A stretch of 64,000 bases of DNA, taken from the IMG/VR virus record IMGVR_UViG_3300045988_130225, positions 1-64,000 of that record. One strand, written 5' to 3'. Each line of letters opens with the position of its first letter. The stretch's first letter is position 1. Below the pieces are notes generated by a model. That model had not been told where the DNA came from. It was given only the letters and a program-made list of their open reading frames with translations, and did not search any database. The stretch is from a virus. This document shows, one piece after another, positions 8,468 through 51,536 of the stretch. The position numbers were made by a program, and so were the translations under genes.

Positions 8468-10183
8468 ATGCAAGTAAAAGAAATTTTGCCTAATATTGAT
8501 TTATCAAGATGGGAAGAACAATATTTAGAAGCGTTTGGTATTAAAGATGTTGAAGAATATTTGTATCCTACTTACAAATACGTAGAACGCCCAGAACGAT
8601 ATGATAATATGGAAGAGGGAAAAGAATTATTACACAAAATATTAAGCAATCAGACTAACCATATAGGAATCGTACAAGACTGTGATTGTGACGGTTTGTT
8701 TTCTGCTGTTATGATGTATAATTTTCTTAAAAACGATTTAAAAGTTAAGAATCCTATTTTCATATATTTTCATTCAGATAAAAAACATGGCATTACAGAA
8801 AATGTGCAAAACTGGGTATTATATAATGAAATTAATTTGTTAATCGTGCCAGATGCAGGTAGCAATGACTATCAAGCACAAGAAGATTTGAATTTCCTTA
8901 ATACCCATATACTAATATTAGACCATCACAAGATTGTTCCATATAAAAGGGAATATATTAGTAATTATGAAACAGTGGTGATTAGTAATCAGCAAGGTTG
9001 GGTAAAGAATAAATGCCTTAGTGGTACTGGTGTTGTGAATAAATTTATTAAATATTATTGTAATAATACTCAAAGTTGTAAAACAAGTGTAAGTGCAAAA
9101 TATGTAGACTTGGTAGCATTTAGTTTAGTGTCTGATAATTGCAATATGCTTTCACAAGAGAATAGAGATTTTCTAATGGTAGGCACTTCTATAGCAAATA
9201 TGCAGAATGAATTTTTAGCTTATCTGAATGAAAATTTAAACTATACTAATGAAGTTACTTGGAAGTCGATAGGATTTATGATATGTCCTTATCTTAACGC
9301 AGTATGTAGGAGTGACAACCAACAATTGAAAGCTGAATTGTTTTTCTGTTTTACTGATAGTCATTCAGAAATGTTTGAAAGCGTACTAGCCAAAATTAAA
9401 GACCAGAAAGCTATACAGGATAAGATTGTCGCTGAAACGGTTAAAGACGGCTGTAGCATGGTTCTACGCACTGATAACGTACCGTTGTTAGGTATCAAGT
9501 ATCTTGAAAACGTGGAACAGTACCCTTACACTGGTTTGATTGCCAATAAACTGAAAGATGAAACTCCGATTGTATTTGCTACACATGAAAGTAATGGTTG
9601 TGTAACTGGTTCTTGCCGGTCTGATTATGAAATCCTTGAACTATGTCAAGATAGTGGGTTATTTGAAATTGCACAAGGACACGATAAAGCCTTTGGAATT
9701 GAATATAAAAAAGAAAATGAAGAAAAGATTTATAAATATATTCAAGATAAATTTACTAATGAAAAGATAGAATTACCGTCAATTCCAGTTGTAAAAAGTT
9801 ATGATTTGGAAAAAGATAATTTGCCAAAATGTTTGTTTGGGTTTGCAGACCAATGGGAATGTATTTGGAATAATGATTTAATTAAACCAGTTTTTGCCAT
9901 TGATTTTAAGTTGAATGTTTCTGATGTAGAGGTAATTGGAAAAGACAAAAAGACGCTACGGTTTAGTAAAGATGGGGTAACATTCATTAAGTTTAAAGAG
10001 AGTGAGAACTGGTTAGATGATATGTCAGAACGGCTTGTACTGGCTTCTACTATTTGCAACCTATCTATAAATTATTGGAATGGTCGGAAATATTATCAAG
10101 TCATTATTGAAGAATGGGAAATTAAGGAAATTCCACAAGAAGTAAAAAAAACTAAAGCGATTTTATGGGACGATGTATGGTAA
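8468..10183 (+). CDS. DHH-family RecJ-like phosphoesterase/exonuclease
   Basis: DHH motifs DCDCDG, VPDAGSND and LDHHK are present. Confidence 0.7.
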   Translation: MQVKEILPNIDLSRWEEQYLEAFGIKDVEEYLYPTYKYVERPERYDNMEEGKELLHKILSNQTNHIGIVQDCDCDGLFSAVMMYNFLKNDLKVKNPIFIYFHSDKKHGITENVQNWVLYNEINLLIVPDAGSNDYQAQEDLNFLNTHILILDHHKIVPYKREYISNYETVVISNQQGWVKNKCLSGTGVVNKFIKYYCNNTQSCKTSVSAKYVDLVAFSLVSDNCNMLSQENRDFLMVGTSIANMQNEFLAYLNENLNYTNEVTWKSIGFMICPYLNAVCRSDNQQLKAELFFCFTDSHSEMFESVLAKIKDQKAIQDKIVAETVKDGCSMVLRTDNVPLLGIKYLENVEQYPYTGLIANKLKDETPIVFATHESNGCVTGSCRSDYEILELCQDSGLFEIAQGHDKAFGIEYKKENEEKIYKYIQDKFTNEKIELPSIPVVKSYDLEKDNLPKCLFGFADQWECIWNNDLIKPVFAIDFKLNVSDVEVIGKDKKTLRFSKDGVTFIKFKESENWLDDMSERLVLASTICNLSINYWNGRKYYQVIIEEWEIKEIPQEVKKTKAILWDDVW

Positions 10184-10189
10184 AATGTA

Positions 10190-10218
10190 TTGATTTTATA
10201 TAAATTCTATGATATAAT
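10190..10218 (+). promoter_or_regulatory. Sigma-A-type promoter, extended -10
   Basis: TTGATT, 17-nt spacer, TATAAT with TGA upstream. Confidence 0.65.
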
Positions 10219-10240
10219 AGAGAATATGAAAGGAGAAATT

Positions 10241-10672
10241 ATGGAAAAATTTAAAGACAAAACTTATGTTGTAGTTTGTAGTGATTTTGAAAAAGCTAGA
10301 AACGCCATGAGAAAAGAAATGTATAAGCATTATCAAAGAGATAGTGACGAACCAAGTATTACCAGAGAAATTAAAAGTACAATGATTAATGGTAGTAAAA
10401 TCAAAGAAACTTGCAGAGGGAATTTAAGATTAATGGAAAATGTTGATAAAAATTATCTTTTTGGATATATTTATTCCAGATTAAATCCTTTTGAAAGTAT
10501 TAAGATTTCATGGCTGAATATTGGTGAATTTAAGAATCCGTCAAAAGGTAATTTTGGATTTTATGATGATGTTGTAAAAATTATTATTGTAGGTAATGAC
10601 GGTTTATCGTTTTATCTTGATAATTTAAAGAAAAGTTTTGGTGCAGACGTAGAAATTGAAATTGTGATGTAA
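10241..10672 (+). CDS. Hypothetical protein (143 aa)
   Basis: I moved the start to the ATG at 10241, which follows AAAGGAGAA. The track's upstream start lies inside the promoter. Confidence 0.65.
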   Translation: MEKFKDKTYVVVCSDFEKARNAMRKEMYKHYQRDSDEPSITREIKSTMINGSKIKETCRGNLRLMENVDKNYLFGYIYSRLNPFESIKISWLNIGEFKNPSKGNFGFYDDVVKIIIVGNDGLSFYLDNLKKSFGADVEIEIVM

Positions 10673-10686
10673 AAGGAGAGAATGTT

Positions 10687-11082
10687 ATGATTAATGATGT
10701 AACTTATGAACTGATTAGAATTGTAAAGAAAATTGATTTAAACAATAATCTGTTTGAGAGAACGGAAGAAAGCAACATTAGTAAAATTGTAAATAAGGAT
10801 ATTGAGAATGTTATTAAAGAAATGGTGGAAACTGATAGCCAGTTCAGATTTAAGAAAAGCATTTTCGATAGACAATACAAAATGAGTGTTGATTATTCAA
10901 AATGTGGTGAAGTGGTTATTAAACCTAAAGAAGGGTTGGGGTTGGTAACTATTATGGAGATTGATGAATTTTTAGAGGTGCTGAGTTTTAGGATTTATAA
11001 AGGGATTGAGAAAGCAAAAGAAGAGCATGAAAATTGGAAGTTATGGAAAATGAATAAGGTGAAGTTAGAGAAATATATTTAA
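10687..11082 (+). CDS. Hypothetical protein (131 aa)
   Basis: ORF with an AGGAGAG Shine-Dalgarno. Confidence 0.65.
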   Translation: MINDVTYELIRIVKKIDLNNNLFERTEESNISKIVNKDIENVIKEMVETDSQFRFKKSIFDRQYKMSVDYSKCGEVVIKPKEGLGLVTIMEIDEFLEVLSFRIYKGIEKAKEEHENWKLWKMNKVKLEKYI

Positions 11083-11104
11083 GTTGTACTAAAGGAGAAT
11101 TAAT

Positions 11105-14100
11105 ATGATTGATACTTATACTACTTTGCATTGCCATTCAGAAATAAGTTCGGCTGTATTAAGATTTGCTGATGCTATATGTCATATTAAAGATAGTATG
11201 GAATGGTGTTATGAAAATAATCTTAGAGGTTATGCCATTACTGACCATCAAAGCTGTAGCGGATATGTCACTCTTGAACAGAGTTACAATGCTTTAAATG
11301 TCGAAAGACCATTTCAGCATATCTTTGGTAATGAATGTTATTTAATTTCACAAGACGAAGATAATTTAAGATTCTCAGAAAATCAACGTCCTTATTATTG
11401 GCATTATTTAGTAAATGTACTTGACCCAGAGGGTTTAAAGCAGATGTATGAATTATCTGCTAGAGCATGGCTACGGAGTTATACTTATAAAGGTTTACTC
11501 CGTAGACCTAATTTCTATTCAGATTTTGAAGAAGTAGTAGGAAATAACCCCGGACATTTAGTTGTTTCAACAGCTTGTGTTTCTGGATATTTACCACATT
11601 GTATCTTAACAGATGATATGGTAAACGGTGATAAATTTATTAAATGGAATCAGCAAGTATTTGGCAAAGATAATTTTTATCTTGAATGTCAGCCTTGTTA
11701 TTCTGATAATGAAGAACAGATAAAAGTAAATAAAGCGTTATGGAAAATTCACGAAGAAAAAAATATTCCTATTATTGTTACTACTGACGCTCATTATCAA
11801 AGACCAGAAGATAGATTTATTCATACTACGTTTTTAAAAAGTAAAGACGGCGGTGATAGTAGAGAACCAGAAAAATTTTATAAAACTACTTATTTATTTA
11901 CACCACAAGAATTAAGAGAAAGATTATACGATAGTGGTTTTAACGATAATCAGATTGATATAATGTTTCAGACCACTAATGAAATCGCAAATAAAGTACA
12001 ACCTATTATCATTAAGAAAACTACCAGAGTACCAAGCTTACCTAGTTTACCAGATTTTGAGATTAAGCATAAATATAAAGAATATTACGAAAAATACGAA
12101 TATATAAAATATTATGCTAATTCAGACGATATAAAAGAACGCCATTATTATTACGAAATAGAAAAAGGCTTGATTAAGTTATTTGATAAACACCCAGAAT
12201 ATGATTTAGAGAAATATTTGGCAAGAGCAAATATTGAAATGAAGCAAGTCTATGAATTAAGCGAAATATTCAAAGGTAGAATGTCTGATTATTTTACTGT
12301 TGTACAGAAAGTAATTGATTTAATTTGGACTGAGGGTGATAGTTATGTAGGGATTGGCAGAGGTAGCGCAGGAGCGTGGCTTACAAACTATTTACTTGGT
12401 GTTACTGGAATAGACCCTGTGCCAGATAACATAAAGGATTTCTATAGATGGTGGAGATTTTGTAGCACTTCTCGCTCCTCTTCGCTGATGGACATTGATA
12501 TAGATATTCAAAGCTTTAAAAAAGAAAAAGTTATAAAAGCTATAAAGAATTACTTTGGCGAAAGAAGAGTTTGTCAATGTGTAACATGGGGAACATTATC
12601 TTCTAAGACAGCTTTTGAACGAGCAGGTAAAGGTTTAGGTATTCCAGAAGAGCAAATTTCTTACATTAAGGCACTCATACCTGTTAAGAGGGGGTTTATA
12701 TATTCTATAGATGATTGTTTAAACGGCAACAAGAAAAAAGAAAGAGAAAAAGTTCCAGAATTTATAAAAGAAGTAAATAAATATCCAGAACTACTTAGAG
12801 TTGCGAAAGCTTTTGAGGGAATGATAGTTTCTTCGGGAACTCACGCAGGTGCTGTAAATATTCTTAAAGGTGATTTTACTGAAACTGGTTCATTAATGGT
12901 TTCTACAAACGGAAGTATAGTAAGTCAATATGATTTACACCAAGCAGAATACGCCGGTGATTTAAAATTTGATTTACTTTCTATTGATTGTCTTGAACTT
13001 TTAAGAGCGGAAATGGATAGTCTTTTAGAACATGGCTATATTAAATGGCAAGGTAATTTAAGAAATACTTATAACTATTATCTTGGATATGAACAATTAG
13101 ATAAAACTAATAAATCAATGTGGAATGAATTACCTAAAATGTTAAAAGCTTTTCAGTTTGATAGTATGGCAGGTAATCAAGCTTTAAAAAAAATTAATCC
13201 ACAAAATTTAACTGAATTAACATTAGCAAATGGTTTAATGAGATTGCAGACCGCTGAAACAGAACAGCCTATGGATAGATATGTTCGTTATAAAAATGAT
13301 ATTAATGAATGGTATAAGGATATGACTGCTTATGGTTTAAACAAAGAAGAGCAATCTATATTAAATGAATATTTATTTCCTTATTGTGGAATGTGTATTT
13401 CTCAAACTACAGTAATGTCTTTACTTATGGACAAAAGGATTTGTGGGTTTAATTTAAAAGAAGCTGACCTCGCCAGAAGAAGTATAGCCAAAAAATCAGC
13501 AGAAGCTTTAGCTAGGACAGAAACTAATTTATATGAAAAAGGTAAGGAAATTGGTAATAGAAAAGTATTTTTAGACTATATTTGGTTAGTACAAATTGCT
13601 ATGTCTTGGAGCTATAGTTTTGATTTTTCTCATAGTTTTTCGTACAGTTCTGAGTGTTTACAAGAAATGAACCTTTATACAAAATATCCGAAAGTATTTT
13701 GGAATTGTGCTGTAGTAACAACACAAGCACAGTCAGAAGATGAAAGAGAACGTGCTTCTAAGACAAAAAACTATAGCAAAATTGCTCAATCCATTTACAA
13801 AGCGAAAGAAAATGATGTATTAGTTGATACACCAGATATTAATAAGTCCGAACTATCTTTTACTCCTTTAGTAGAAGAGGATAAAATTTTATTTGGACTT
13901 GGTGGTGTAACTAAAATCAATCGTGATGTTTATTCAGATATTTTATCTGGTAGACCATACAATTCATTTAAGGAATTTTATGATTATCATAAAACTCATA
14001 AATTCCCTACAAATGAAGTTGATGAAAGCGGTAATGTAATTTATCGTAATTCATCAGTAACAAGAAGTATTATGATTGTATTAATCAAGTCTGGGTGTTT

Positions 14101-27659: not shown

Positions 27660-27848
27660 TTAACAAAATTTAAAAATTAGTACAAGTAAAACAATCATTA
27701 TTAATATAATTCCTATTATAGATAACAAAGCCTGTGGTTCATTTAAACCAAGGTCTACTATAAAAGCAATAAATATTACAATTAAGAAAAATATAAGTAT
27801 CACTGCCACTGCTAAGAGCATTAAACCAACGATTGATAACATACTCAA
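27660..27848 (-). CDS. Small two-TM protein, holin/antiholin candidate
   Basis: 62 aa, almost entirely hydrophobic, located downstream of the lysin. Confidence 0.5.
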   Translation of the reverse strand: MSMLSIVGLMLLAVAVILIFFLIVIFIAFIVDLGLNEPQALLSIIGIILIMIVLLVLIFKFC

Positions 27849-27915: not shown

Positions 27916-28107
27916 TTATTTAATAAAAACAGCTATAAGCATTGTCACCGTAGCAAATACTGATAAATAAGTAACAGCCTTTGCAAGTATAACAGCATAG
28001 TCATAATTACGTTTAGAAGAATTAATCATAAATATAATTACAAGTAAAATAAATGCAAATATTAAACTTAAAATAGAAATTGCCGATAAAATAGAAGCTG
28101 TACTCAT
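27916..28107 (-). CDS. Small two-TM protein, holin candidate
   Basis: 63 aa with two hydrophobic segments, directly downstream of the lysin. Confidence 0.5.
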   Translation of the reverse strand: MSTASILSAISILSLIFAFILLVIIFMINSSKRNYDYAVILAKAVTYLSVFATVTMLIAVFIK

Positions 28108-28134: not shown

Positions 28135-29055
28135 TTAATCTTCTTTATTAGTAAGTCCACTAAATTTAAGACTTCCATCATCACTTGCGCTAAATTTAAT
28201 ATTAACGTCTGATACCATAGCACCGTTTTCATCAAGATAATACCAACTACCATTATCTTCTAACAGTCCTTTTCTCATAGCACCAGTATCATCTAAATAA
28301 TACCATTTATCATGGTACTTATACCAAGTATTAGTTAAACATGCCCCTGCACCATCAAAATAATACCAATTATCTTTATATTCAAGCCACTGATTAGAAA
28401 TCATACCACCATCACCAGACAAATAGTACCACTTTCCATCTTCATAAAACCACTGACTTGTGATTAATTTCCCCTCACCGTCCATAACATACCAACGGTT
28501 ATTATCATTAACCCATGAGTTCACTACAATAATTCCATTTCTATAATATCTCCATGAGCCGTTTACCTTAAAGAAACCGTTTTTATATTCAGTAACGGTA
28601 TTATCATATATAATATCTTTAATCTTAAATGCTTTTTTCCATGGTGTCGAATTTAAGTTACTCTGGATAACCCCGTAATTGATACCTTTTGCTTCGATTA
28701 CATGGTTACGGTCAAGTACAATGCCGATATGACCTTGTTTCCACACTGCGTAACCCAGTTTATCATCTGTTAATTTAGACGGTGGGATTTTGCTGTTACC
28801 AGTCTGTTCAAACTGTCCAGAACCACGAATGATACCAGTATACCATGAAATTAGTCCAGAACAGTCAACAGCTTCTTCACCTACCCATTGTAAAGCCTTA
28901 TTAATATAAGCTTGTGTGTAAATATTTGGATATTGCCTAGCCCATGAATAAATCTTAGTCTTAGTAAGAATCTCACCTTTAGCACCATAAACATAATGAA
29001 CGCCTATTTTACTTTTGGCAAATTCCACTAAACCTTTTGCTGTTTTATTAGCCAT
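28135..29055 (-). CDS. Endolysin: NlpC/P60 endopeptidase plus CW_binding_1 (choline-binding-type) repeats
   Basis: Catalytic AVDCSGLISW and GHIGIV. The C-terminus carries repeated W(Y)YYxxxxGxMxxxxW units. Confidence 0.9.
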   Translation of the reverse strand: MANKTAKGLVEFAKSKIGVHYVYGAKGEILTKTKIYSWARQYPNIYTQAYINKALQWVGEEAVDCSGLISWYTGIIRGSGQFEQTGNSKIPPSKLTDDKLGYAVWKQGHIGIVLDRNHVIEAKGINYGVIQSNLNSTPWKKAFKIKDIIYDNTVTEYKNGFFKVNGSWRYYRNGIIVVNSWVNDNNRWYVMDGEGKLITSQWFYEDGKWYYLSGDGGMISNQWLEYKDNWYYFDGAGACLTNTWYKYHDKWYYLDDTGAMRKGLLEDNGSWYYLDENGAMVSDVNIKFSASDDGSLKFSGLTNKED

Positions 29056-29079
29056 TATTCTACTTTCCTTTCATATAAT

Positions 29080-29136
29080 TTTAGAAAGCTATATGCTTCT
29101 ACTTACGATAATAGCACATAGCTTTCTAAAAGTCAA
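29080..29136 (-). promoter_or_regulatory. Sigma-A-type promoter embedded in a 17-bp inverted repeat, upstream of the lysin
   Basis: Minus strand reads TTGACT (29131-29136), 17-nt spacer, TATTAT (29108-29113). The spacer itself (29114-29130) is one arm of the inverted repeat; the other arm is 29080-29096 (one mismatch). Confidence 0.6.
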
Positions 29137-29153
29137 TAGATACACTTATATTT

Positions 29154-37552: not shown

Positions 37553-37586
37553 AAATCACACTTCCTTTCTATGTAATCTAAATATT

Positions 37587-42509: not shown

Positions 42510-45500
42510 TTAATCTCTCCTTCCACCCATCTGTAATGCTCTGTTTTTTAAATTCTTTAATTCGTCAATAAATGATTGTGCGTTGGTAACATTTGGTAAT
42601 GTAAGATTTTCAAAAGCGTAGTTATAAATAGGTGCAGACTGTCCACCCATTTTTCCTACAATACTGTTTAACCATTGTGTAGGTGAGAATTTACCAAGTT
42701 GCATAAGATTCTCAGTCAAATGATTAGGAATAATACCGTCACCCTCATTAGACCTTGAACCAAGAACTCTTAATTCTCGACCTTTTTCACCAACCATAGA
42801 TAAACCATAACCTTTTGTTGTACCGTTTGCATAAGCCCCCGGGCCATGTGAAGTATCATCTTCATACCAGTTATCACCACCAGACCCATGAGAATATTCA
42901 GGTTCTTTATCAGTCCAATGTTCTTCTGGGTCAAGTTCGTCACCAAATTCTTCATCATCATCATCATCGTAACTTTTATATCTTGTCTTAAGTGTACTCA
43001 TTATTTCATTATATCTATCTACATAATCTTGAAGATTACCAAGACGTTTCTCCCAGTTTTCACCCTCTAAACTAATGCCTAATACTTGTTCAGCAAGAAG
43101 TTTATTCTGTTCAGTTGTATAATTATCTGTAACATTTCCCCATTCATCTTTATACTTTTGCCAATACTTTATCTGTTCTTCAACTGAATTAATTGTAGCG
43201 TCACGAATATCTTCTAATCGTTTTATCTCTTTCTTGGTGTCTTGCTCTTTCTTATATTGTGTAAGAGCAGTTTTAGCTTCGTCTACAGCAGATTGGTCTG
43301 TTTCGTAAACAAAACCTTGTCCCTCTCTATATATTCTTACTTTCTTTTGTTGTGCTTTTGCTAAAGCATCTAACTTTTCTTGTAGTTCAATTTCGTCATT
43401 TGTTGCATCGTTCTTTTCGTTTATTTTGTCAATCTCAGCATCGTACTGGTCTTGAATAGCTTGTTTTCTTTCGTTAAGTGCATCAATTTCTTTTTGCGCT
43501 AATGAAGCAACATAACTAAACGCTGTTTCCAGATTAGATTGTTGTTCCTCATACCAAGCCTTTTCTTCCTCCCACTCTTCTTTACGTGCTTTCTTACGCT
43601 TTTCTGCTTCTTGCTCTGCTTTTCTTGTATTTTCTTCTTCAAGTTTATTACGTCCAGAATAAATCTCTTCTTCAATTTTCCAACGTTGCTCTGCGTATTT
43701 TTCTTCATTACTATAGAACTCTTTCATTAATTCTTCAAGTTCGTCATAGTATTCCTGTTCAGAAATCATATCCATAGCAAGTTGATGTTTTAAGAGGTTA
43801 TAACGCTCAGTATAAGCCGCATCATGGGCTTTTGTCATACCGTCTAAGGCTTTCTCATGATACTTGTTATATTCATCCTCATACCCCTCTTTATCTTTGT
43901 AGTATTTATTTGTAAGTTCTTCAAGCTGTTCATAATACCATTTATCTGTAGCGGCATTATCTTTCATTGAAGCCTTTTGTTTATCTAAAGTAGCAAGTTC
44001 TTTTTCAAATGCTTCTTTATATGCTTTAGCGTCTGCTTTTGCTTGTTTTTCTGCATCTGAGGTTGAGGATTTCTTAGAACCACCGCCACCTTTACCAGAT
44101 TTGCCACCAGATGTAGACGGTTTAAACTGTAATCCTTTTCTCAATTCCTCTAAAAGTTTTTGATTTTGTTGATTACGGTAAGCTTGAACTTGTGCGTCAA
44201 ATCCTTCTGAGTAAGATTGAACACCAACACCGCTACTGCCTGTTCTAGCTTTTGGTGCGGCACCAGATACAGCATCTAAACTAGAAGCAAATTGTAAAAT
44301 TCCTTGCGCTCCTTGTGCAAATTGGTTACCTGTTGTTATAGCCGTATTACCAATCGTTGTTAAATAAGGATTTGCTTGTGAACTTGCTGTTCCCACTTGT
44401 TGAATAGAAGTTCCTAAATTATCAGAACCTTGTTTCCCTATTTCTGCGTTTGTGCCAACTTTTTGCTCACTTTCACTAAAAGTATCTAATCCTTGTGAAC
44501 TAGAAATAGCAGAAATCCCACTTTCAGTAAAGCTTTGTGCCATTGACATTAAAGAAGCATCGTTAACAACTAATTGACCATTTACCATTTGTAAAGAATT
44601 AAGATATTCTGGGTTTAAAGATAATAAATCAGCCATTGTATCTATTGTAACACTACCAGTTTTATTGTATTCGTCTGCTACTTCATGTAAAGTATCATAA
44701 GCGTCTTGAACACCTTTTAATTCTGATGTAAGACTTTTAATAGCTTCTTCAAATTCTTCTGTTTGAGAAGCGGCTTCACCTGCATCTTCACCATATTGAT
44801 TTACGCCATCAGCGGCTTCTTTTGCTTTATCACCATTATCTTGTAATTCAATTCCTAATGCTTTTGCAAAATCTGGAAATTGCGTAGCAACAACTTCATC
44901 TAATGCTTCTTTAAATAACGGAATCTGCGAATTATTTTTAAGCAACGCATTGTATACACTTTCAAAAGAACTAAGACTATCATATTGAGTATTTATAAAA
45001 GATTGCGTCTTTTTATCAACATCAACCGTTGCATCAGCGGCTTCTCTTGTAAGTGTAGCAGTTTTATTATATTTATCCTCTAATTCAACAAGAGTATTAC
45101 TTAAGAACGCTAAAGTTTGCTGATGTAATTTTGTTTGATTATCTTCTTGTTGCATTGCGGTAATAGTAGTGTTTAAATCCGCTATTAATTCTTTATAACC
45201 ACCTGCCGCTTCATAAACGCCTTCACCCAAACTCTTTGTATATTTATTATAAAACGCCTTAAAAGATTCACTGGATTCAGTATCAGAGGTAAATTTCAAA
45301 GGAATATAAAACGAAGTTCTATTTAACATATCCTGTGTTGCTTTTTGCGCTTTCTGAATTTCAGCTTGATTTCTGTTCAAAAAATCTTGTGATTTTTCAG
45401 CATTTTCTTTACTAAGTAAATCTAAACCTTCTGCTCTTGTTCCGTTCAAATTTGATAGTGCTTCTTCTTCAACACCATAAGCCTTAGCAAGTTTGGAAAT

Positions 45501-47174
45501 TGTAGATTTCAATTTCTGCTTATCTTCATCTTCGTTGCTTGCGGCATCTTTAGCATTAATATATTCAAGTCTTAAATTATAAAGATTTTTTCTTTCATCT
45601 TCAAAACTACTACCTGCTTGTTCTGCGGCTCTTCTTGCGTTTTCTTGTTGAGTATTATAATAACCATAAGCGGCTACAAGTCCAGTAACAACAAGTGATA
45701 CTGCACCTAAACTTGCAGTTAATAAACTACCTGCACCTGCCATAGCCGTAAATCCTTGTGCTAAAGAACCTGTAGCGGCATAAGCATAATCAAATTTAGC
45801 AATCATGTCTAAAACATTTGTAGATATTTTTGCTATCATTTCTGGTACTTTATGTCCATTAAGAGTAATAAAAGCACCTGTAATAGCAGTAAGTACAGTG
45901 GGCATACCGCCTAAATCATTAATAAGTTTTAATACTTGCGTACCAAATTCTACAAGGCGTTTTACACTATCTGAAGAAATACCCTCAGTCCAAAACTTTT
46001 CTAATTCAGATGTGAACTGAGATACTTTACCTTGAATAGAATCAAGATAACGTGCGTTTTCTTTAAGTGCTGAACCTTGGGAGTCTAAAGCTATTTTATA
46101 AGCTTCTGTAGCCGAATTAAGGTTTAGCATAACCGAGTTAAATACAGAAAATTGGTTCTTACCTGCCAACGCCAAACCCAGTGATTGCTTTTCAGCTTGT
46201 GACATATCATCCCAACTGGATTTTAAATCTTGAAAAACTTGATATGTACTTTTCATTTCTCCTGTAGATTTATCAAATAAATCTATGGATTTTGTCACAC
46301 CTTGTACTTTAAAACTTAATTCACCTGCTTCATTAGCGGCTTTTGCTATATTGTTTCCTATTGTAGTTAATCCCCTTGCAACCTGTGCGCTTCTTCCTGT
46401 AAGTATTTCTGTACCTGAGGTGATTAACGCTATAGATTGCTCAAAATCGTTGCCTAATACGGAAAGACCTGCACCTGCTACAGTAAGACCTTTTGCTAAA
46501 TCATTAGTTCCAACAGCCATGTTATTAGCAACCTCATTAGTGACATCTATGATATGTTGAGCATCTTCCGCTGTCATATTAAATGCTTTCATCTGAGAGT
46601 TCACAAAACTTGCACTATCTCCTGCTGAAATTGCAGTATCCGCAATATTCTGGAACATAGTTGCTACTTTTCCTAATTGTAAACTTTCTTGGTCTGAATA
46701 ACCCATTTTCTTGAACTGAGTTCCTGCTTCTATAAATTCAGTAGCACTTTTTCCTACTTCAAGACCCATTTCTCTTGCTGTGCTTACAAAACTTTTCATT
46801 CCCTCGTCTGTTAAATCAGACACTTTCTTATATTCAGTAACAGCCGCATCTAATTCCCTAACAGCATCTACACCTTCCATTAACGATTGTCTTAACTCAT
46901 TAATAACAAGTGTTACACCACCAAACTTAGACACCTTAGTAAATATATCACCAATACTTTGAGAAGTTTTTTCTGCACTTGTAGATGTATCATCAAATCC
47001 AACTTTTAATCCTTTAAGTCCACTTAACGCATCGTTAAGTTTACTTGTATCAACATCAATGCCAACTTTCATAGTTGCATATTTTTGACTTATCTTATCT
47101 AATTGTGCTTGAATATTTTTTGCGTCCAATACTGCGTTTACAAGTATTTGAAAATCTCTACTATTCAATGCCAT
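42510..47174 (-). CDS. Tail tape measure protein
   Basis: 1554 aa with long coiled-coil K/E-rich stretches, hydrophobic segments and a GGKSGKGGGGSKK linker. Position fits the tail operon. Confidence 0.9.
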   Translation of the reverse strand: MALNSRDFQILVNAVLDAKNIQAQLDKISQKYATMKVGIDVDTSKLNDALSGLKGLKVGFDDTSTSAEKTSQSIGDIFTKVSKFGGVTLVINELRQSLMEGVDAVRELDAAVTEYKKVSDLTDEGMKSFVSTAREMGLEVGKSATEFIEAGTQFKKMGYSDQESLQLGKVATMFQNIADTAISAGDSASFVNSQMKAFNMTAEDAQHIIDVTNEVANNMAVGTNDLAKGLTVAGAGLSVLGNDFEQSIALITSGTEILTGRSAQVARGLTTIGNNIAKAANEAGELSFKVQGVTKSIDLFDKSTGEMKSTYQVFQDLKSSWDDMSQAEKQSLGLALAGKNQFSVFNSVMLNLNSATEAYKIALDSQGSALKENARYLDSIQGKVSQFTSELEKFWTEGISSDSVKRLVEFGTQVLKLINDLGGMPTVLTAITGAFITLNGHKVPEMIAKISTNVLDMIAKFDYAYAATGSLAQGFTAMAGAGSLLTASLGAVSLVVTGLVAAYGYYNTQQENARRAAEQAGSSFEDERKNLYNLRLEYINAKDAASNEDEDKQKLKSTISKLAKAYGVEEEALSNLNGTRAEGLDLLSKENAEKSQDFLNRNQAEIQKAQKATQDMLNRTSFYIPLKFTSDTESSESFKAFYNKYTKSLGEGVYEAAGGYKELIADLNTTITAMQQEDNQTKLHQQTLAFLSNTLVELEDKYNKTATLTREAADATVDVDKKTQSFINTQYDSLSSFESVYNALLKNNSQIPLFKEALDEVVATQFPDFAKALGIELQDNGDKAKEAADGVNQYGEDAGEAASQTEEFEEAIKSLTSELKGVQDAYDTLHEVADEYNKTGSVTIDTMADLLSLNPEYLNSLQMVNGQLVVNDASLMSMAQSFTESGISAISSSQGLDTFSESEQKVGTNAEIGKQGSDNLGTSIQQVGTASSQANPYLTTIGNTAITTGNQFAQGAQGILQFASSLDAVSGAAPKARTGSSGVGVQSYSEGFDAQVQAYRNQQNQKLLEELRKGLQFKPSTSGGKSGKGGGGSKKSSTSDAEKQAKADAKAYKEAFEKELATLDKQKASMKDNAATDKWYYEQLEELTNKYYKDKEGYEDEYNKYHEKALDGMTKAHDAAYTERYNLLKHQLAMDMISEQEYYDELEELMKEFYSNEEKYAEQRWKIEEEIYSGRNKLEEENTRKAEQEAEKRKKARKEEWEEEKAWYEEQQSNLETAFSYVASLAQKEIDALNERKQAIQDQYDAEIDKINEKNDATNDEIELQEKLDALAKAQQKKVRIYREGQGFVYETDQSAVDEAKTALTQYKKEQDTKKEIKRLEDIRDATINSVEEQIKYWQKYKDEWGNVTDNYTTEQNKLLAEQVLGISLEGENWEKRLGNLQDYVDRYNEIMSTLKTRYKSYDDDDDEEFGDELDPEEHWTDKEPEYSHGSGGDNWYEDDTSHGPGAYANGTTKGYGLSMVGEKGRELRVLGSRSNEGDGIIPNHLTENLMQLGKFSPTQWLNSIVGKMGGQSAPIYNYAFENLTLPNVTNAQSFIDELKNLKNRALQMGGRRD

Positions 47175-47177
47175 TAT

Positions 47178-47762
47178 TTACATGCACCTACCTTTCTTGG
47201 CGTTTATATTTGGCTTCTTACCAAATCCCTTACTTATTTCAGTAGGTTTAATCTGTGACCATGCTATTCCAATAGCATCTCCAATATCATCATCATTTTT
47301 CACGCTTTTAGGTTTATCTAAATCATAAAACAATTCCAACCCAAAAATATGATTGACTTTTTCTATAGTTTTCCATTTCATTACTGGGCGTTTAGTTCCA
47401 TCTCTAGTACCATCATAAACACCCAAATCACTACGCCATTTACTAGGCATAAGAAATTCTATTTTTACATTATGTACTGCACAAACACCTAATACAATTC
47501 CTTGTAACACTGATAATTGTTTTACTGTTTGTACATTATTACCACATTCACCACTTAAAATTGTATCTTCACAATAAATAAAAAATGGGGAATAAGTGTC
47601 CAATAGCGTGGATAACTCATTCCCCATATATATACAACGTTCTCTCCAAGCTATCTCTTGCTTCTGTTTCCAAACGCCAAATTTAATCAATTTACCATTT
47701 TTAAAAACTGAATATCCAGAACTTTTCGTTGACATATCCAGTCCAATTACAACATTTTCCAT
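47178..47762 (-). CDS. RuvC-like Holliday-junction resolvase
   Basis: VIGLDMSTKSSGYSVF (Asp 1), YCEDT (Glu) and DDDIGDAIGIAWS (Asp 3/4). Confidence 0.8.
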   Translation of the reverse strand: MENVVIGLDMSTKSSGYSVFKNGKLIKFGVWKQKQEIAWRERCIYMGNELSTLLDTYSPFFIYCEDTILSGECGNNVQTVKQLSVLQGIVLGVCAVHNVKIEFLMPSKWRSDLGVYDGTRDGTKRPVMKWKTIEKVNHIFGLELFYDLDKPKSVKNDDDIGDAIGIAWSQIKPTEISKGFGKKPNINAKKGRCM

Positions 47763-47782: not shown

Positions 47783-48292
47783 TTACCAGAAAGAGGATAT
47801 ATTTTTGCCTCTTCCTACACTTCTACACTGTATTCCTTGTTTTTGCATACCCTCAATGAACCATTTCTTTAATTCGCCTTTGTTCAACTGTTCAATTAGT
47901 GGTGTCCAAGCATCTCTTGGTTTGCACCACCAACCGTATCCAAACAAATCACCACCAAGACCTTGATATATAATTCCAGTTAATTCATCTCTTACATCAC
48001 CATAAGTAGTATATAAACTACCATGCTGAAACATTTCTGGATTATAAGACATAAAAGTAGGGTCTTGAGATAAAATCCCAGACCCACCTTTGCTTGTTTT
48101 TTGTGAATTTGTTTGCCAACTTTCCAGAAACTCATATGTTCTTTCATACTCTTCTGGCATATGTGTATATACAATCTGATTGATTAATTCTTTGTATTTT
48201 ATAATCATTTGTTGCATTACATATTCAACAGCTTTAAAAACTGGTTCATTGTACAAGGAATAAAACTCAGCTACATTTTTAGCATAAGCCAT
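47783..48292 (-). CDS. Hypothetical protein (169 aa)
   Basis: ORF in the tail operon. Confidence 0.6.
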   Translation of the reverse strand: MAYAKNVAEFYSLYNEPVFKAVEYVMQQMIIKYKELINQIVYTHMPEEYERTYEFLESWQTNSQKTSKGGSGILSQDPTFMSYNPEMFQHGSLYTTYGDVRDELTGIIYQGLGGDLFGYGWWCKPRDAWTPLIEQLNKGELKKWFIEGMQKQGIQCRSVGRGKNISSFW

Positions 48293-48301
48293 TTTACTTT
48301 A

Positions 48302-48751
48302 TCACTTCTTTCCAAACGCTTCAACCAACTTTTTACTGTCTGCTAACATATCCTCAATCTGCTTATTATTAGGCATTTTCTTAGCATATTTATCTAAAGT
48401 CTTATTCAACTGTTCTAAAAATTTATTTACATTAGTTCTGATTGATAATTCATCTTCTACATAATCGTCAATTTCACTAACGTTAAACACATCAAAATTC
48501 ACAGTTTCAATAATTCCAGATTTAACAAGCATATCATAATCTTTAGCAATTTCCTCTGGAATATCAGTCATTAACTTAACAAGCATTGTATTTTTAATAA
48601 CATTTCTCTCAACAGCATTTGAACACTTTAACATATTATTTCCAATAAGTTCAACCTGTTCTGGTGTTAAATAGTGTTTTACTGTATATTTTTCACCTTT
48701 TTTGTCCTCGGTATAAGGAATTGTTATCACTTTTTCTTCTAAATTAATCAT
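48302..48751 (-). CDS. Hypothetical acidic protein (149 aa), tail-assembly chaperone candidate by position only
   Basis: Start moved to the ATG at 48751 (MINLEEK...), which follows GAAAGGAA. Confidence 0.45.
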   Translation of the reverse strand: MINLEEKVITIPYTEDKKGEKYTVKHYLTPEQVELIGNNMLKCSNAVERNVIKNTMLVKLMTDIPEEIAKDYDMLVKSGIIETVNFDVFNVSEIDDYVEDELSIRTNVNKFLEQLNKTLDKYAKKMPNNKQIEDMLADSKKLVEAFGKK

Positions 48752-48878
48752 TTTATTCCATTCCTTTCGTTTTATTCCATAATCTATGTACAAGGGTGTA
48801 ACGAAACGTGACACCCTTTCAAAAAGTTTACCCTACCAATTTATCATACAATCCATTCAAGCCAATGTCGCCCTATTT

Positions 48879-49148
48879 TTACTTATCAGTAACCACTTTC
48901 TTTGCAACTTGGTCTACCCATGTAGAAGCCATTCCAGACACAATACCAATAGCAACAGCCGTCATAATATCGTCAGCAGGAAAATCAACCATATATCTAT
49001 AACCTAAAACACCTGCAATTCCACCAATCAATCCAACAATCGGCAAAATTTTATTATTATCTAACTTAGTATAATTTTTAACAAACTGTCCTGCAAGATA
49101 AGCAATAACTACAATTACAGGTACACTTACAATTCCGAAATCTGGCAT
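48879..49148 (-). CDS. Holin-like three-TM protein (89 aa)
   Basis: Three hydrophobic segments and a charged C-terminus (QVAKKVVTDK). The layout recalls Hol118-type class I holins (recalled from memory). Confidence 0.5.
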   Translation of the reverse strand: MPDFGIVSVPVIVVIAYLAGQFVKNYTKLDNNKILPIVGLIGGIAGVLGYRYMVDFPADDIMTAVAIGIVSGMASTWVDQVAKKVVTDK

Positions 49149-49163
49149 AATATCAAGTCCTTT

Positions 49164-49544
49164 CTATTTGAATCCGTATTTAGTTGCTAATATATATCCT
49201 ACAAAAGATATTGCAATAATTATTGTGGGAAAATTTTTCTTTATGTATTCCATAATATTAAAATTGGATTCTTCTTTAATTTTATTAAAATCCGTTTTAA
49301 TATCGTTTACTTGAAGTTTAACGTCTGAAACGTCACTTTGTAAAGAAATCATTGTAATTTTAATATCTTGAATAGTTTCATTTAAAGCAGTATTAGTTTT
49401 TACAACTTGTTCTGATAATTGCTGAATAAATTTATGACTTTCTTGAAGTCTGGTAATATCTTGTGTATGTTCATCTACTTTTAACTTAACTTCTCTTAAA
49501 TCCTCTTTAATTTCATGTGCTGTCATATCTTCCACAAATCTCAC
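49164..49544 (-). CDS. Coiled-coil protein with a C-terminal membrane anchor (126 aa)
   Basis: Heptad-like N-terminal 95 aa followed by FPTIIIAISFVGYILATKYGF. Confidence 0.6.
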   Translation of the reverse strand: MRFVEDMTAHEIKEDLREVKLKVDEHTQDITRLQESHKFIQQLSEQVVKTNTALNETIQDIKITMISLQSDVSDVKLQVNDIKTDFNKIKEESNFNIMEYIKKNFPTIIIAISFVGYILATKYGFK

Positions 49545-49602
49545 CTACTTTACCATAAAATACCCTTCTTTCTTTTTTATCCGTCCATTCATTTCATTCC
49601 AA

Positions 49603-49977
49603 TTAATCACCACAAAGGTTAGCAAATACAATACCAGTAATTGCTCTCAAATCAGCCTTATTCAAAGTTCCAATATAGTTCTTAAACCTTGACTTATCCA
49701 CAGCACGAATTTGTTCAGCACAAGCAACGCTATCATCTACAAGAAATTTATTTTTTTCTTTAGATAATGTATAGTGTGTAAGCAAATCTTCTCTTTTAAC
49801 TTTAGAAGTTAAAGGTACTATGATTATGGTAGGGCTATAAAAATTTCCAGTATCATTCTGTAAAATTAATACTGGTCTTACTCCGCCTTGTTCTGAACCT
49901 TGGGTATTCCTTAAATCAGCATAATAAACTTCCCCTCTTTTGAATGTTCTTGCGTTATTGTTTATTGTTGTAAACAT
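49603..49977 (-). CDS. mazF: MazF/PemK (EndoA-like) endoribonuclease toxin
   Basis: RGEVYYADL....GSEQGGVRPVLILQND.GN..SPT.I.VPLTS closely parallels Bacillus EndoA/NdoA. Confidence 0.9.
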   Translation of the reverse strand: MFTTINNNARTFKRGEVYYADLRNTQGSEQGGVRPVLILQNDTGNFYSPTIIIVPLTSKVKREDLLTHYTLSKEKNKFLVDDSVACAEQIRAVDKSRFKNYIGTLNKADLRAITGIVFANLCGD

Positions 49978-50025
49978 ATTCAGTTCTCCTTATGTACTAT
50001 ATTTTTATATAACTTTCATATAATA

Positions 50026-50054
50026 TATATAGCACTTTTTATTTACAAAGTCAA
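50026..50054 (-). promoter_or_regulatory. Sigma-A-type promoter, extended -10, dedicated to mazF
   Basis: Minus strand reads TTGACT (50049-50054), 17-nt spacer, TATATA (50026-50031) with TGC upstream. Confidence 0.7.
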
Positions 50055-50059
50055 TACTT

Positions 50060-50407
50060 TTATTTACCATAACCCTTATTTTTATTAATACCATACCCAT
50101 TTTTTGTCTTATATAAAGTAACATATTTAGGTACAAAATTAAAAGGATTTTTCAATGTAATCACCATATTGTTCTCAACTTCAATATACAATTCGCCTTT
50201 CTTTTCAAAACGAACCCTTGAAGCCTTTTCTGGAACAATATATTCACTTTTTAACCTACAAGTATCTTGACTTGGTAATGGTTTCCAACAATCTGATATA
50301 TTGCACCAACGAACAAAAGGACAAATATTACCATTTTGTCTTTTACATAAAACCCTATTTCTATTATCTATTTTGCCAATATATGAATCTGGACACAAAA
50401 TAATCAC
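50060..50407 (-). CDS. Cys-rich hypothetical protein (~112-115 aa; start uncertain, GTG at 50407 or TTG at 50398)
   Basis: Six Cys in the N-terminal 50 aa (CPDS...CKRQNGNICPFVRWCNISDC...C) and a beta-rich C-terminal half. Confidence 0.6.
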   Translation of the reverse strand: MIILCPDSYIGKIDNRNRVLCKRQNGNICPFVRWCNISDCWKPLPSQDTCRLKSEYIVPEKASRVRFEKKGELYIEVENNMVITLKNPFNFVPKYVTLYKTKNGYGINKNKGYGK

Positions 50408-50426
50408 TTCCTTTACAGCAAAATTT

Positions 50427-50465
50427 AAAATATGTAAAATGCGTAGAGCATATCACCCTACGCAT
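50427..50465 (-). terminator. Rho-independent terminator after the major tail protein gene
   Basis: Minus strand has the ATGCGTAG / CTACGCAT stem (50439-50446 / 50458-50465) followed by a T-rich tail. Confidence 0.7.
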
Positions 50466-50489
50466 ATAGATACAAGCCAGTAACAGAGA

Positions 50490-51536
50490 TTAACCGACAG
50501 TTACGTTAGCATAGCCTTCAACTGCTTGATTCTTAGTAAGAACAGCGTGGATAGTGGTTGTACCAGTTGCTACGCCCTCTACCTCACCAGTTGCGTCATC
50601 TACTTTAGCTGTACCAACAGCACCACTTGTAAAAGTAACAGCAGTTGGGTCTACTAACTTAGGCAGAGCATTTCTGATAAGAGCATAAACCTTAATGGTT
50701 TCTTTCTCAGCTACTTGTAAATCAATATCAGCCGGAGTTAAAGCTAATGCGTAAGCATCATTTTCCCACTGAGCAGTGGACAGAATTTCCTTAATAGTAC
50801 CATAAATAGCTTCGTCACTACAACTAGAGGTTTCAGCAGAAGCCAGAGCAGAACCATTAAGAGGTGTGTTAGCCGCACCAGTCATACTCATAGAAATCTC
50901 CTGTGAACCGTTTAACATTAAACGTGGAATATCAATCTGAACCTCACCGACCTTAGTAGTAGAAGCTTCATTTGGATTAGTGCTACTACCTGCAAACAAA
51001 GTACCAGTCATTACAGCATGTACAGTAGCAGGAATAAAGTTAGCACCTACTGTAAGCACTCTCATGGAATCATTGTTTACTATATACTTAACGCAATAAA
51101 CATCACCAGACATAGCACCTGCGACAGTGATAATCTTGTTGTTGAAAGTACCCTTAGTCCATGTAGAATCATTAGGTTTCTTATACCAACCAATAGTACC
51201 AAAATTACCAAATGCTACAGGAATACCTGCTACAGTAATCTGTCCTGCATCTGTTACAGTAACTTCCTCAACAGTTAAAGCACTGCCACCAATCGCAATA
51301 TCAGAACCAATGTTCTTTGCGATAAATTCAAGACGGAACATTACATCAGTAAGAGTTACGTCCATTGTGGAAGAATGTGCGTATTTACCATACAGTTTTG
51401 CACCTTGTCCACCACGAATATCTTCAAGAGATACATCAAAACTAAAAGTAGAATCTGTTAAAGTTTTTGCAGTAGCAAACAGTTCATCACCTACAAAAAG
51501 GTCAACATTTGCTACACCGGCTAAAAAAGCATCCAT
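50490..51536 (-). CDS. Major tail protein with a C-terminal Ig-like (Big_2-type) domain
   Basis: 348 aa, richer in G+C than its neighbours. The C-terminus reads VTFTSGAVGTAKVD..G.V.GVATGTTTIHAVL. A terminator follows directly. Confidence 0.65.
   Translation of the reverse strand: MDAFLAGVANVDLFVGDELFATAKTLTDSTFSFDVSLEDIRGGQGAKLYGKYAHSSTMDVTLTDVMFRLEFIAKNIGSDIAIGGSALTVEEVTVTDAGQITVAGIPVAFGNFGTIGWYKKPNDSTWTKGTFNNKIITVAGAMSGDVYCVKYIVNNDSMRVLTVGANFIPATVHAVMTGTLFAGSSTNPNEASTTKVGEVQIDIPRLMLNGSQEISMSMTGAANTPLNGSALASAETSSCSDEAIYGTIKEILSTAQWENDAYALALTPADIDLQVAEKETIKVYALIRNALPKLVDPTAVTFTSGAVGTAKVDDATGEVEGVATGTTTIHAVLTKNQAVEGYANVTVG

Follow-up and report, generated by a model that had tools for sequence, protein, structure and literature searches.

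Within a 64,000-nucleotide stretch of viral DNA (positions 1 to 64,000 of IMG/VR record IMGVR_UViG_3300045988_130225; hereafter, the window), the interval 48752–50489 holds four minus-strand genes, one of them a mazF endoribonuclease gene, between the gene of the major tail (tube) protein and the gene of a 149-amino-acid (aa) protein. We found that this interval belongs to the late (tail) operon of an SPbeta-like siphophage lineage of gut Clostridia, in which it is conserved and inherited vertically, and that its conserved architecture is very likely made of two modules: a Cys-rich protein gene with mazF, and a coiled-coil protein gene with a holin gene. As the main explanation for the interval as a whole, we propose that a domesticated MazF cleaves the late transcript of its own phage and is self-limiting, to which we give a probability of roughly 0.45. 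A first-pass annotation of the window, made from the letters and a list of open reading frames (ORFs), had described four ORFs between the tube gene (50490–51536) and the gene at 48302–48751. The ORF list bore out this layout, and the annotated identities (MazF, a holin-like protein, a coiled-coil membrane protein, and a Cys-rich protein) agreed with profile matches and sequence features. The genes and the elements considered for regulation are listed below in transcriptional order.

50490–51536, minus strand: YomU-type major tail (tube) protein (C-terminal Big_2 domain) that anchors the module on its upstream side.
50439–50465, minus strand: stem-loop after the tube gene, with an 11-bp stem and a 5-nt loop (−17.1 kcal/mol, z −2.5).
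50431–50436, minus strand: TACATA (UACAUA in RNA) 2 nt 3′ of the first hairpin, a candidate MazF site in the leader of the Cys-rich/mazF unit.
50060–50398, minus strand: Cys-rich protein, 112 aa from a TTG start (the listed ORF starts at GTG 50407).
50026–50054, minus strand: predicted sigma-A-type promoter of mazF (−35 TTGACT at 50054–50049, 17-nt spacer, TGc, −10 TATATA at 50031–50026).
49991–49996, minus strand: TACATA directly 5′ of the mazF Shine-Dalgarno sequence (SD; TACATAAGGAG), a candidate autoregulatory cut site.
49603–49977, minus strand: MazF/PemK endoribonuclease, 124 aa (PF02452, PHROG 1936).
49164–49535, minus strand: coiled-coil protein of 123 aa counted from a GTG start, with a membrane anchor at the C-terminus (listed ORF 49164–49544).
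48879–49148, minus strand: Hol44-family holin (holin superfamily V), 89 aa (PF16079, PHROG 1129).
48792–48818, minus strand: stem-loop after the holin gene (about −14 kcal/mol).
48785–48790, minus strand: TACATA in the 149-aa gene leader, 1 nt 3′ of the second hairpin.
48302–48751, minus strand: 149-aa acidic helical protein, a conserved backbone gene whose homologues lie right after mazF where the holin pair is absent.

Relatives of the window were gathered by protein search; a search for near-identical DNA among GenBank phages returned no match. The closest cultured relatives were the ~100-kb virulent Enterocloster bolteae phages PMBT24 and CB457P1/CB473P, in which homologues of all four genes keep their order and place (amino acid identities of 51, 53, 38–41, and 81%). 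All four genes were also present in 17 IMG/VR contigs and in two intermediate metagenomic contigs (L020 and L021). The window tube protein, identified by a Big_2 match and PHROG virion/tail matches, and on homologues by PF27173 (YomU_Tube), is 65–68% identical to the tube proteins of the Enterocloster phages. Beyond these relatives, the backbone order of tube, Cys-rich, MazF, 149-aa, 169-aa (weak YomN match), RuvC-like, and tape measure protein genes was kept down to 35–43% tube identity, as observed in the distant loci L024, L026, L031, L033, L036, L039, L040, L041, and L044. The SPbeta-like character of the lineage is seen in PF27173, PF27256, and PF27197 matches on homologous loci (YomU tube and YomW/YomX neighbours) and in homologues of the single-chain RNA polymerase YonO. 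PMBT24 encodes one directly upstream of its structural genes (ORF 9612–12107, E = 3.4e-35; annotated there as an RNA-dependent RNA polymerase), and clade-A contigs carrying a window-type block encode YonO homologues too, the gene lying outside the 64-kb window.

The first-pass annotation had instead regarded the interval as four unrelated genes interposed as an accessory or mobile cassette, and had suggested looking in related phages for a tube gene directly followed by the 48302–48751 homologue. No such empty site was found in 19 of 19 close loci or in L020 and L021, and the genes occupied the same locus in every relative examined. Neither was the notion of inserted unrelated genes borne out, for the four genes have co-diverged with their neighbours under purifying selection: their pairwise dN/dS ranged from 0.06 to 0.39, and their dS was similar to that of neighbouring structural genes, apart from a local exchange with L020 spanning the holin and RuvC-like genes of the window. 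In that comparison, the holin gene (48879–49148) and the RuvC-like gene (47178–47762) are nearly identical (dS 0.03–0.06), compared with a tube gene dS of 0.74, which indicates recent recombination within the module and a mosaic history. The GC content of the block (0.29–0.35) shows no anomaly against its surroundings. The two modules differ in phylogenetic depth: the Cys-rich and mazF genes reach deep into the lineage, whereas the coiled-coil and holin genes are limited to some clades.

The proposed cassette had been delimited by GTTAC-N3-CTTGTA repeats, of which copy 1 is the following feature.

50471–50484, minus strand: repeat copy 1 (minus-strand GTTACTGGCTTGTA), one degenerate half of a short palindrome.

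Both 14-mers were indeed exact, at 50471–50484 and 48789–48802; the bracketing role ascribed to them was unsupported, as they are not conserved. Copy 1 reads GTTACTGGTTTGTA in most close relatives, that is, with one base changed among sequences 97–99% identical; it differs more in clade B and is absent from the homologous junction of L020. It corresponds to one half of a palindrome, GTTAC-N6-GTAAC, visible in L021 and L014, and copy 2 (48789–48802) is the 3′ arm of the hairpin at 48792–48818. A recently acquired four-gene mobile cassette bounded by these repeats and acting as an exclusion or abortive-infection unit could draw on the over-representation of GTTACNNNCTTGTA in the window (3 exact occurrences; 7 with at most 1 mismatch vs. 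1.3 expected), on its own promoter, and on the flanking hairpins. Against this, the block is present in all relatives, has co-diverged with the operon, and lacks any compositional anomaly, and the repeats are not conserved even at 97–99% identity; for these reasons, we do not regard it as an accessory cassette. The different depths of its two halves and the lack of a defence-system match point the same way: at E ≤ 0.01, PADLOC defence-system models gave no match to the block proteins, bar a chance coiled-coil hit to DruC (0.006). We consider such a cassette very improbable; what we found was largely the opposite pattern, universal conservation of the genes at this position with the repeats missing from homologous junctions.

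The product of mazF is probably an active endoribonuclease specific for UACAUA, as judged from its sequence. It matched PF02452 (E = 2.4e-28, above the gathering score) and PHROG 1936 (E = 1.3e-28 over residues 7–115), and its closest solved structures were Staphylococcus aureus MazF (E = 1.6e-26) and Bacillus subtilis EndoA, with matches to these two enzymes in the range E = 1e-26 to 1e-22. The blocks GSEQGGVRPV and EQIR-DK-R are common to the window MazF and the S. aureus and B. subtilis enzymes. The GGVRP and PLTSK motifs (catalytic Arg and Thr) are kept in all phage MazF copies, and the dN/dS of mazF was 0.11–0.32. According to a preprint that cites Guler 2024 and Taggart 2025 on this point (bioRxiv 10.64898/2026.08.06.743204), the MazF enzymes of B. 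subtilis, Listeria monocytogenes, and S. aureus cut the strict hexamer U^ACAUA.

This hexamer recurs next to hairpins in the operon. The hairpins that the first-pass annotation had placed after the tail gene and around the second repeat copy were both recovered by folding, at 50439–50465 and 48792–48818. At the tube junction, a hairpin was located at the same place in all 15 lineages compared, although the stems are unrelated in sequence; in relatives, folding energies of −21 to −23 kcal/mol (z −3.3 to −4.8) were obtained. TACATA follows 0–6 nt past the hairpin in 13 of the 15 lineages, where the chance of meeting the hexamer is 0.03–0.11 per spacer. At the junction between the holin and 149-aa genes, hairpin and TACATA were present together in all six lineages examined. 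The TACATA in the mazF leader is conserved in clade A and clade B (TACATAAATAAGGAG), and three of the five leader-region TACATA sites on the late strand of the window belong to the block. The motif was found by spacer alignment before the published MazF site was met in the literature; the hairpin-adjacent hexamer equals the published Bacillota site in all six bases. We therefore propose, still tentatively, that the hairpin-UACAUA elements are cis-targets of the phage MazF. TACATA was also considered as a −10 box or part of a sigma-K-type promoter; the SD abuts the motif in the mazF leader, and this reading was rejected because the SD starts 4–5 nt past TACATA in several lineages.

A similar arrangement was noticed in two unrelated temperate Clostridia phages that carry mazF, Clostridium phage NatCom_42228 (L058, around 30876) and L059 (around 16130), where, a short way downstream of mazF, a hairpin is followed by TACATAGAA(A/G)GGAG. 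NatCom_42228 has a hairpin-TACATAGAAAGGAG element right after its mazF and a 12.6-fold leader enrichment of TACATA. A related TACATAGAAAGGAAG occurs in the window at 37575.

The distribution of TACATA was then compared between leaders (the 50 nt upstream of start codons) and coding sequences (CDS), together with that of its reverse complement and of one-base variants. The counts (leader : CDS) were as follows.

TACATA: window 5 : 13; PMBT24 8 : 8.
TATGTA (reverse complement): window 1 : 39; PMBT24 3 : 81.
TACAAA (one-base variant): window 1 : 59; PMBT24 5 : 96.
TACTTA (one-base variant): window 0 : 35; PMBT24 0 : 42.

Overall, one-base variants occurred 0–5 times in leaders vs. 15–96 times in CDS. 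In the late region of PMBT24, TACATA was found six times in intergenic and twice in coding sequence, where intergenic sequence makes up 6.1% of bases (Fisher p = 2e-6). It was the 8th most intergenic-enriched hexamer of that region, the higher ranks being SD-like or A-rich runs. Depletion within ORFs was assessed from sense-strand counts relative to synonymous-codon shuffles (n = 300).

PMBT24 late ORFs: 2 TACATA observed vs. 14.1 expected; 0 of 300 shuffles as low.
PMBT24 early/middle ORFs: 4 observed vs. 13.1 expected; 0 of 300 shuffles as low.
Window early ORFs: 1 observed vs. 7.0 expected; 0 of 300 shuffles as low.
SPbeta, all ORFs: 109 observed vs. 52.9 expected; enriched, z +8.7.

The antisense hexamer was not depleted in PMBT24 (38 vs. 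29 and 37 vs. 30); the depletion is thus confined to the sense strand, indicating that selection acts on RNA and not on DNA. For the pentamer UACAU, no depletion was detected in the late genes of the window and z was −2.5 in its early genes; the signal is clear only for the hexamer and in PMBT24. SPbeta, which has YonO and no phage mazF, showed neither enrichment of TACATA in leaders (ratio 1.0) nor an association of the motif with hairpins. Its excess of TACATA in ORFs is the opposite of the pattern in PMBT24, an observation of note as host MazF is reported to restrain SPbeta-family phages (PMC10769878).

On these grounds, the proposed mechanism would run as follows. YonO transcribes the SPbeta late genes as one operon (PMC5467207), and a single very long late transcript of this type would need internal punctuation. 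The phage MazF would cut the late transcript at single-stranded UACAUA just 3′ of the hairpins. After the cut, the tube mRNA would retain a protective 3′ hairpin, and the downstream RNA, including the mazF message, would be left with an unprotected 5′ end; the outcome would be punctuation of the operon together with differential expression. For all lineages, the first cut site would lie in the leader of the Cys-rich/mazF unit, and the window clade, having acquired an internal promoter, would have a second one before mazF. Cleavage could then feed back negatively on MazF synthesis without a canonical MazE, which would explain how a mazF lacking MazE is tolerated and kept under purifying selection. 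The same MazF may also cleave host mRNAs carrying UACAUA, and a host-takeover role is possible. The first-pass annotation had offered exclusion, abortive infection, or host takeover as functions of the block; the first two found no match among the PADLOC models, and the last is compatible with our results as a possibility. A more extended version, in which a MazF domesticated throughout the lineage as a dedicated enzyme of RNA processing and regulation sets the ratio of tube to downstream proteins by hairpin-UACAUA punctuation of the YonO-made late transcript, receives negative feedback through the leader site, and has its antitoxin replaced by the Cys-rich partner (possibly RNA-binding), is conceivable but, taken as a whole, unlikely to our minds.

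The proposal that the phage MazF cuts its own transcript must be weighed against several observations. The specificity of the enzyme is deduced from roughly half identity to S. aureus MazF in the aligned region, and the host MazF could be the enzyme acting on the UACAUA sites. The motif could also serve as a signal to the YonO-type polymerase, an enzyme just as widespread in the lineage. At the tube junction, the motif is missing from L020 and L024, and part of the hexamer is paired in several minimum-energy folds. In the window, leader enrichment is modest (p = 3e-3), and the late ORFs show no depletion of TACATA (13 observed vs. 11.6 expected). Furthermore, Faecalibacterium phage Lagaffe carries mazF and shows no leader enrichment of TACATA.

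Several of these points would fit an explanation in which MazF is a host-shutoff nuclease only, UACAUA is avoided in ORFs to escape the MazF of the phage or of the host, and the hairpin-TACATA elements are YonO-polymerase signals (pause, termination, or re-initiation) or sites for other host RNases. YonO homologues are as lineage-wide as mazF, and the promoter and terminator signals of YonO are undescribed (PMC5467207). In addition, PHROGs places phage MazF-like proteins under host takeover, the sigma-A-type promoter before mazF could allow early expression, and the early genes of the window are depleted of TACATA. This explanation, however, has to accommodate a conserved hexamer identical to the published MazF site over six bases, the lack of such punctuation in SPbeta despite its YonO, and a mazF phage without YonO that has the same hairpin-TACATA-SD arrangement. 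The SD 4–5 nt past TACATA in several lineages further speaks against a −10 box. We regard a role confined to the host as possible though unlikely, and keep to self-directed cleavage by MazF as the main explanation.

The partner of mazF, the Cys-rich protein, belongs to a family for which a profile search returned 152 cluster representatives of 100–190 aa. In an alignment of 80 homologues, C5, C21, C29, and C50 were invariant and C35 nearly so, and the C-terminal half was conserved (VRFEKxGxLYIE...NPFDxVP). The start codon is probably TTG 50398, because all homologues begin with MCPDSY. The protein had no match in Pfam, PHROG, NCBIfam, or PADLOC, nor did any of 80 family members match an entry of Pfam or PHROG. 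An AF2 model based on a deep alignment (pLDDT 88.5) consisted of Cys-rich beta-hairpins and a small C-terminal beta-barrel. Foldseek returned nothing significant for this model in the PDB, apart from weak OB, cold-shock, and IF1-like hits (probability about 0.6), and uncharacterised phage proteins only in BFVD. The N-terminal module of four to five Cys residues is of a metal-binding type.

Wherever the sequence of a locus was long enough, the Cys-rich gene came after a YomU-type tube gene and occurred together with a PemK/MazF gene, spaced as follows.

Adjacent or overlapping (1–44 nt apart or an 8–11-nt overlap): L021, L024, L031, L032, L033, L036, L039, L040, L041, and L044.
One gene between: clade B and L026.
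Several kb apart: L023.

Conversely, none of the 29 cellular MazF relatives examined had a Cys-rich neighbour. The private promoter that the first-pass annotation had placed before mazF is present as a sigma-A-like site, predicted from sequence, that recurs in four sub-clades. It lies between the Cys-rich gene and mazF in the window clade and clade B and is conserved in L005, L012, L020, PMBT24, and L014, with the consensus TTGACT-17-TATAAT in PMBT24. It is absent where the two genes are coupled (L021, L031, and L032), and coupling or overlap is seen in L021, L031, L032, L036, and L039–L041. No MazE/PemI-type antitoxin (AbrB/SpoVT or RHH domain) was found upstream of mazF in profile and fold searches of the Cys-rich gene. 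Owing to the strict linkage to mazF and the frequent gene overlap, we suggest, with some reserve, that the Cys-rich protein may be a dedicated MazF modulator, either an inhibitor or an RNA-binding cofactor. Two findings count against this role: in the window, a promoter separates the Cys-rich gene from mazF, and in clade B the antitoxin position is occupied by another gene.

The linkage would also fit a self-contained toxin-antitoxin (TA) pair of Cys-rich protein and MazF serving conflict (phage exclusion, countering or mimicking host MazEF, or addiction), with no processing of phage RNA. As in type II TA operons, the Cys-rich gene is always upstream of mazF and often overlaps it or lies 1–7 nt off, and the family occurs only with mazF; moreover, SPbeta-family phages encode the unrelated small MazF binders AimX and YosL (PMC10769878). 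Such a pair is nevertheless unlikely: no MazE, AbrB, or RHH domain was found, the Cys-rich fold has no match, and the protein shows no similarity to YosL. TA cassettes do not typically keep one fixed place behind the tube gene throughout a family of virulent phages, a promoter stands between the two genes in the window clade, and the conservation of the UACAUA sites would be left unexplained. YosL, the known phage MazF inhibitor, was also sought as a counterpart and rejected, being unrelated to the Cys-rich protein or any ORF of the window.

The additional gene of clade B, x148, encodes a 148-aa protein with a C-terminal zinc ribbon and lies between the Cys-rich gene and mazF. As a candidate antitoxin, it had weak zinc-ribbon matches and no homologue anywhere in the window. 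In L013 (IMGVR_UViG_3300045988_144793, about 8560–8930), x148 is interrupted by a ~370-bp insert without a long ORF, and no Rfam family matched this insert as a possible intron.

Phage-borne mazF is widespread, with 100 phage records matched in one collection, and literature searches found no assigned role or cis-sites for such genes. If the extended version of self-directed cleavage is correct, it would be the first function assigned to them, and a natural case of a toxin-antitoxin nuclease whose cognate sites are built into the operon architecture of its owner. An enzyme, a published 6-nt site, and conserved cis-positions come together here in one operon, which gives a concrete and testable role, and the lineage has a cultivable member, PMBT24 on Enterocloster bolteae. 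The analysis also defines a new protein family, strictly linked to phage mazF and without a Pfam or PHROG entry, and shows a way in which the very long late transcripts of the YonO type might be split up.

Compared with known systems, the phage MazF has the toxin fold and family, the RNA-binding and catalytic blocks, and the UACAUA site of chromosomal MazEF (NdoA/EndoA-MazE) of Bacillota. Unlike there, however, it has no MazE-type antitoxin, a new Cys-rich family lies upstream, the pair has a set place within the tail operon of a phage, and the cognate sites take conserved positions on the element's own transcript. "MazF-like growth inhibitor" genes of PHROG 1936, such as those of Lactobacillus phage Maenad and Psychrobacillus phage Perkons, are likewise phage-borne solo mazF genes, but they are situated among early or DNA-metabolism genes and without a Cys-rich partner. 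T4 RegB is a phage endoribonuclease that acts on early messages at the motif GGAG. The proposed MazF would resemble it, by analogy only, as a sequence-specific phage endoribonuclease that reshapes expression by cutting phage mRNAs at short motifs in their ribosome-binding or intercistronic regions, whereas the protein families are unrelated and the motif and the class of messages differ. Finally, our results extend recent work on SPbeta-family phages that sense or manipulate host MazF. In SPbeta/phi3T, an SPbeta-like lineage is also tied to a UACAUA-specific MazF through non-canonical binders (AimX, YosL, and phi3T_93; PMC10769878), but the enzyme there is the host's and is inhibited or released by phage proteins, whereas here the phage itself carries mazF. 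Neither the Cys-rich family gene nor mazF was found in SPbeta, nor any hairpin-TACATA punctuation.

The second module, consisting of the coiled-coil protein and the Hol44 holin, is a late-operon lysis pair unlinked from the endolysin. The holin matched PF16079 (E = 1.2e-14, above the gathering score) and PHROG 1129, annotated as holin; it is 81% identical to the PMBT24 holin, and its dN/dS was 0–0.06. PMBT24 has no other annotated holin (holin ORF55, lysin ORF77; PMC11035940). The coiled-coil protein gave sub-threshold generic coiled-coil matches and has a C-terminal hydrophobic anchor (TIIIAISFVGYILAT); its start is probably GTG 49535, because homologues are 120–123 aa long. These homologues are restricted to this phage group, and the pair with the holin to the window/Enterocloster group. 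In L039, L041, and L044, a coiled-coil homologue precedes a different protein with one N-terminal transmembrane (TM) segment and a weak Holin_LLH match (E = 0.003). The candidate endolysin lies far from the pair.

28135–29055, minus strand: candidate endolysin (NlpC/P60, choline-binding repeats), separated from the holin by ~20 kb.

The canonical adjacency of holin and endolysin is thus not seen, and the same separation exists in PMBT24. The first-pass annotation had remarked that the layout was unlike described toxin-antitoxin or lysis arrangements, and we agree, as the block is neither a canonical mazEF operon nor a holin-endolysin cassette. In the PBSX-type lysis module, the order is XhlA-XhlB-XlyA. 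The present pair is similar in that the gene of a small membrane-associated coiled-coil protein immediately precedes that of a holin, but it lacks an XhlA match and its endolysin is 20 kb off, so that the resemblance is one of layout only. For the coiled-coil protein and two homologues, no XhlA match was obtained in a Pfam scan to E = 1, in which HMMER filters drop most matches above about 0.1, and PADLOC and NCBIfam gave nothing specific. A 15-aa micro-ORF between mazF and the coiled-coil gene was dismissed as its frame is not conserved among relatives (sequences read by eye).

Beside the endolysin candidate, two minus-strand ORFs of 62–63 aa (27660–27848 and 27916–28107) each contain two strongly hydrophobic segments. 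They may be additional, alternative, or principal holins, a possibility that counts against our reading of the block. In the spacer before the endolysin candidate (29056–29153, minus strand), we noticed a sigma-A-like promoter, TTGACT-17-TATTAT with TG, overlapping a long inverted repeat (agaaagctatgtgc...gcatatagctttct) that could be an operator or attenuator.

Downstream of the block, the 149-aa protein (48302–48751) probably has a role in tail assembly, and the module continues with three further genes.

47783–48292, minus strand: 169-aa conserved backbone gene, whose L024 homologue has a weak YomN match.
47178–47762, minus strand: RuvC-like resolvase gene directly upstream of the tape-measure gene (PHROG 827/159; NCBIfam RuvC at 5e-7).
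42510–47174, minus strand: tape measure protein, the downstream anchor of the module.

A gene for a RuvC-like Holliday-junction resolvase is located inside a tail module, and this position is kept in the distant loci L024, L026, L036, and L039. In some clade-A contigs (L066–L074), the YonO match spans 3.1–3.6 kb, not 2.5–2.8 kb, a sign that the gene may contain insertions. A contig of 85.8 kb assigned to the metagenome-assembled genome "Bacilli bacterium HGM10839" (L075, CAAGHO010000049.1) encodes a MazF 97% identical to that of the window, along with tube and Cys-rich genes; most likely, the contig is this phage, placed in a bacterial genome by mis-binning. In addition, GATC-containing pentamers were near-absent from ORFs (0–3 observed vs. 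17–45 expected in the window; all 0 in PMBT24), and TCAGG/CCTGA in the window and GCTGC/GCAGC and GAGCT in PMBT24 were also strongly depleted, a pattern that looks like restriction-site avoidance.

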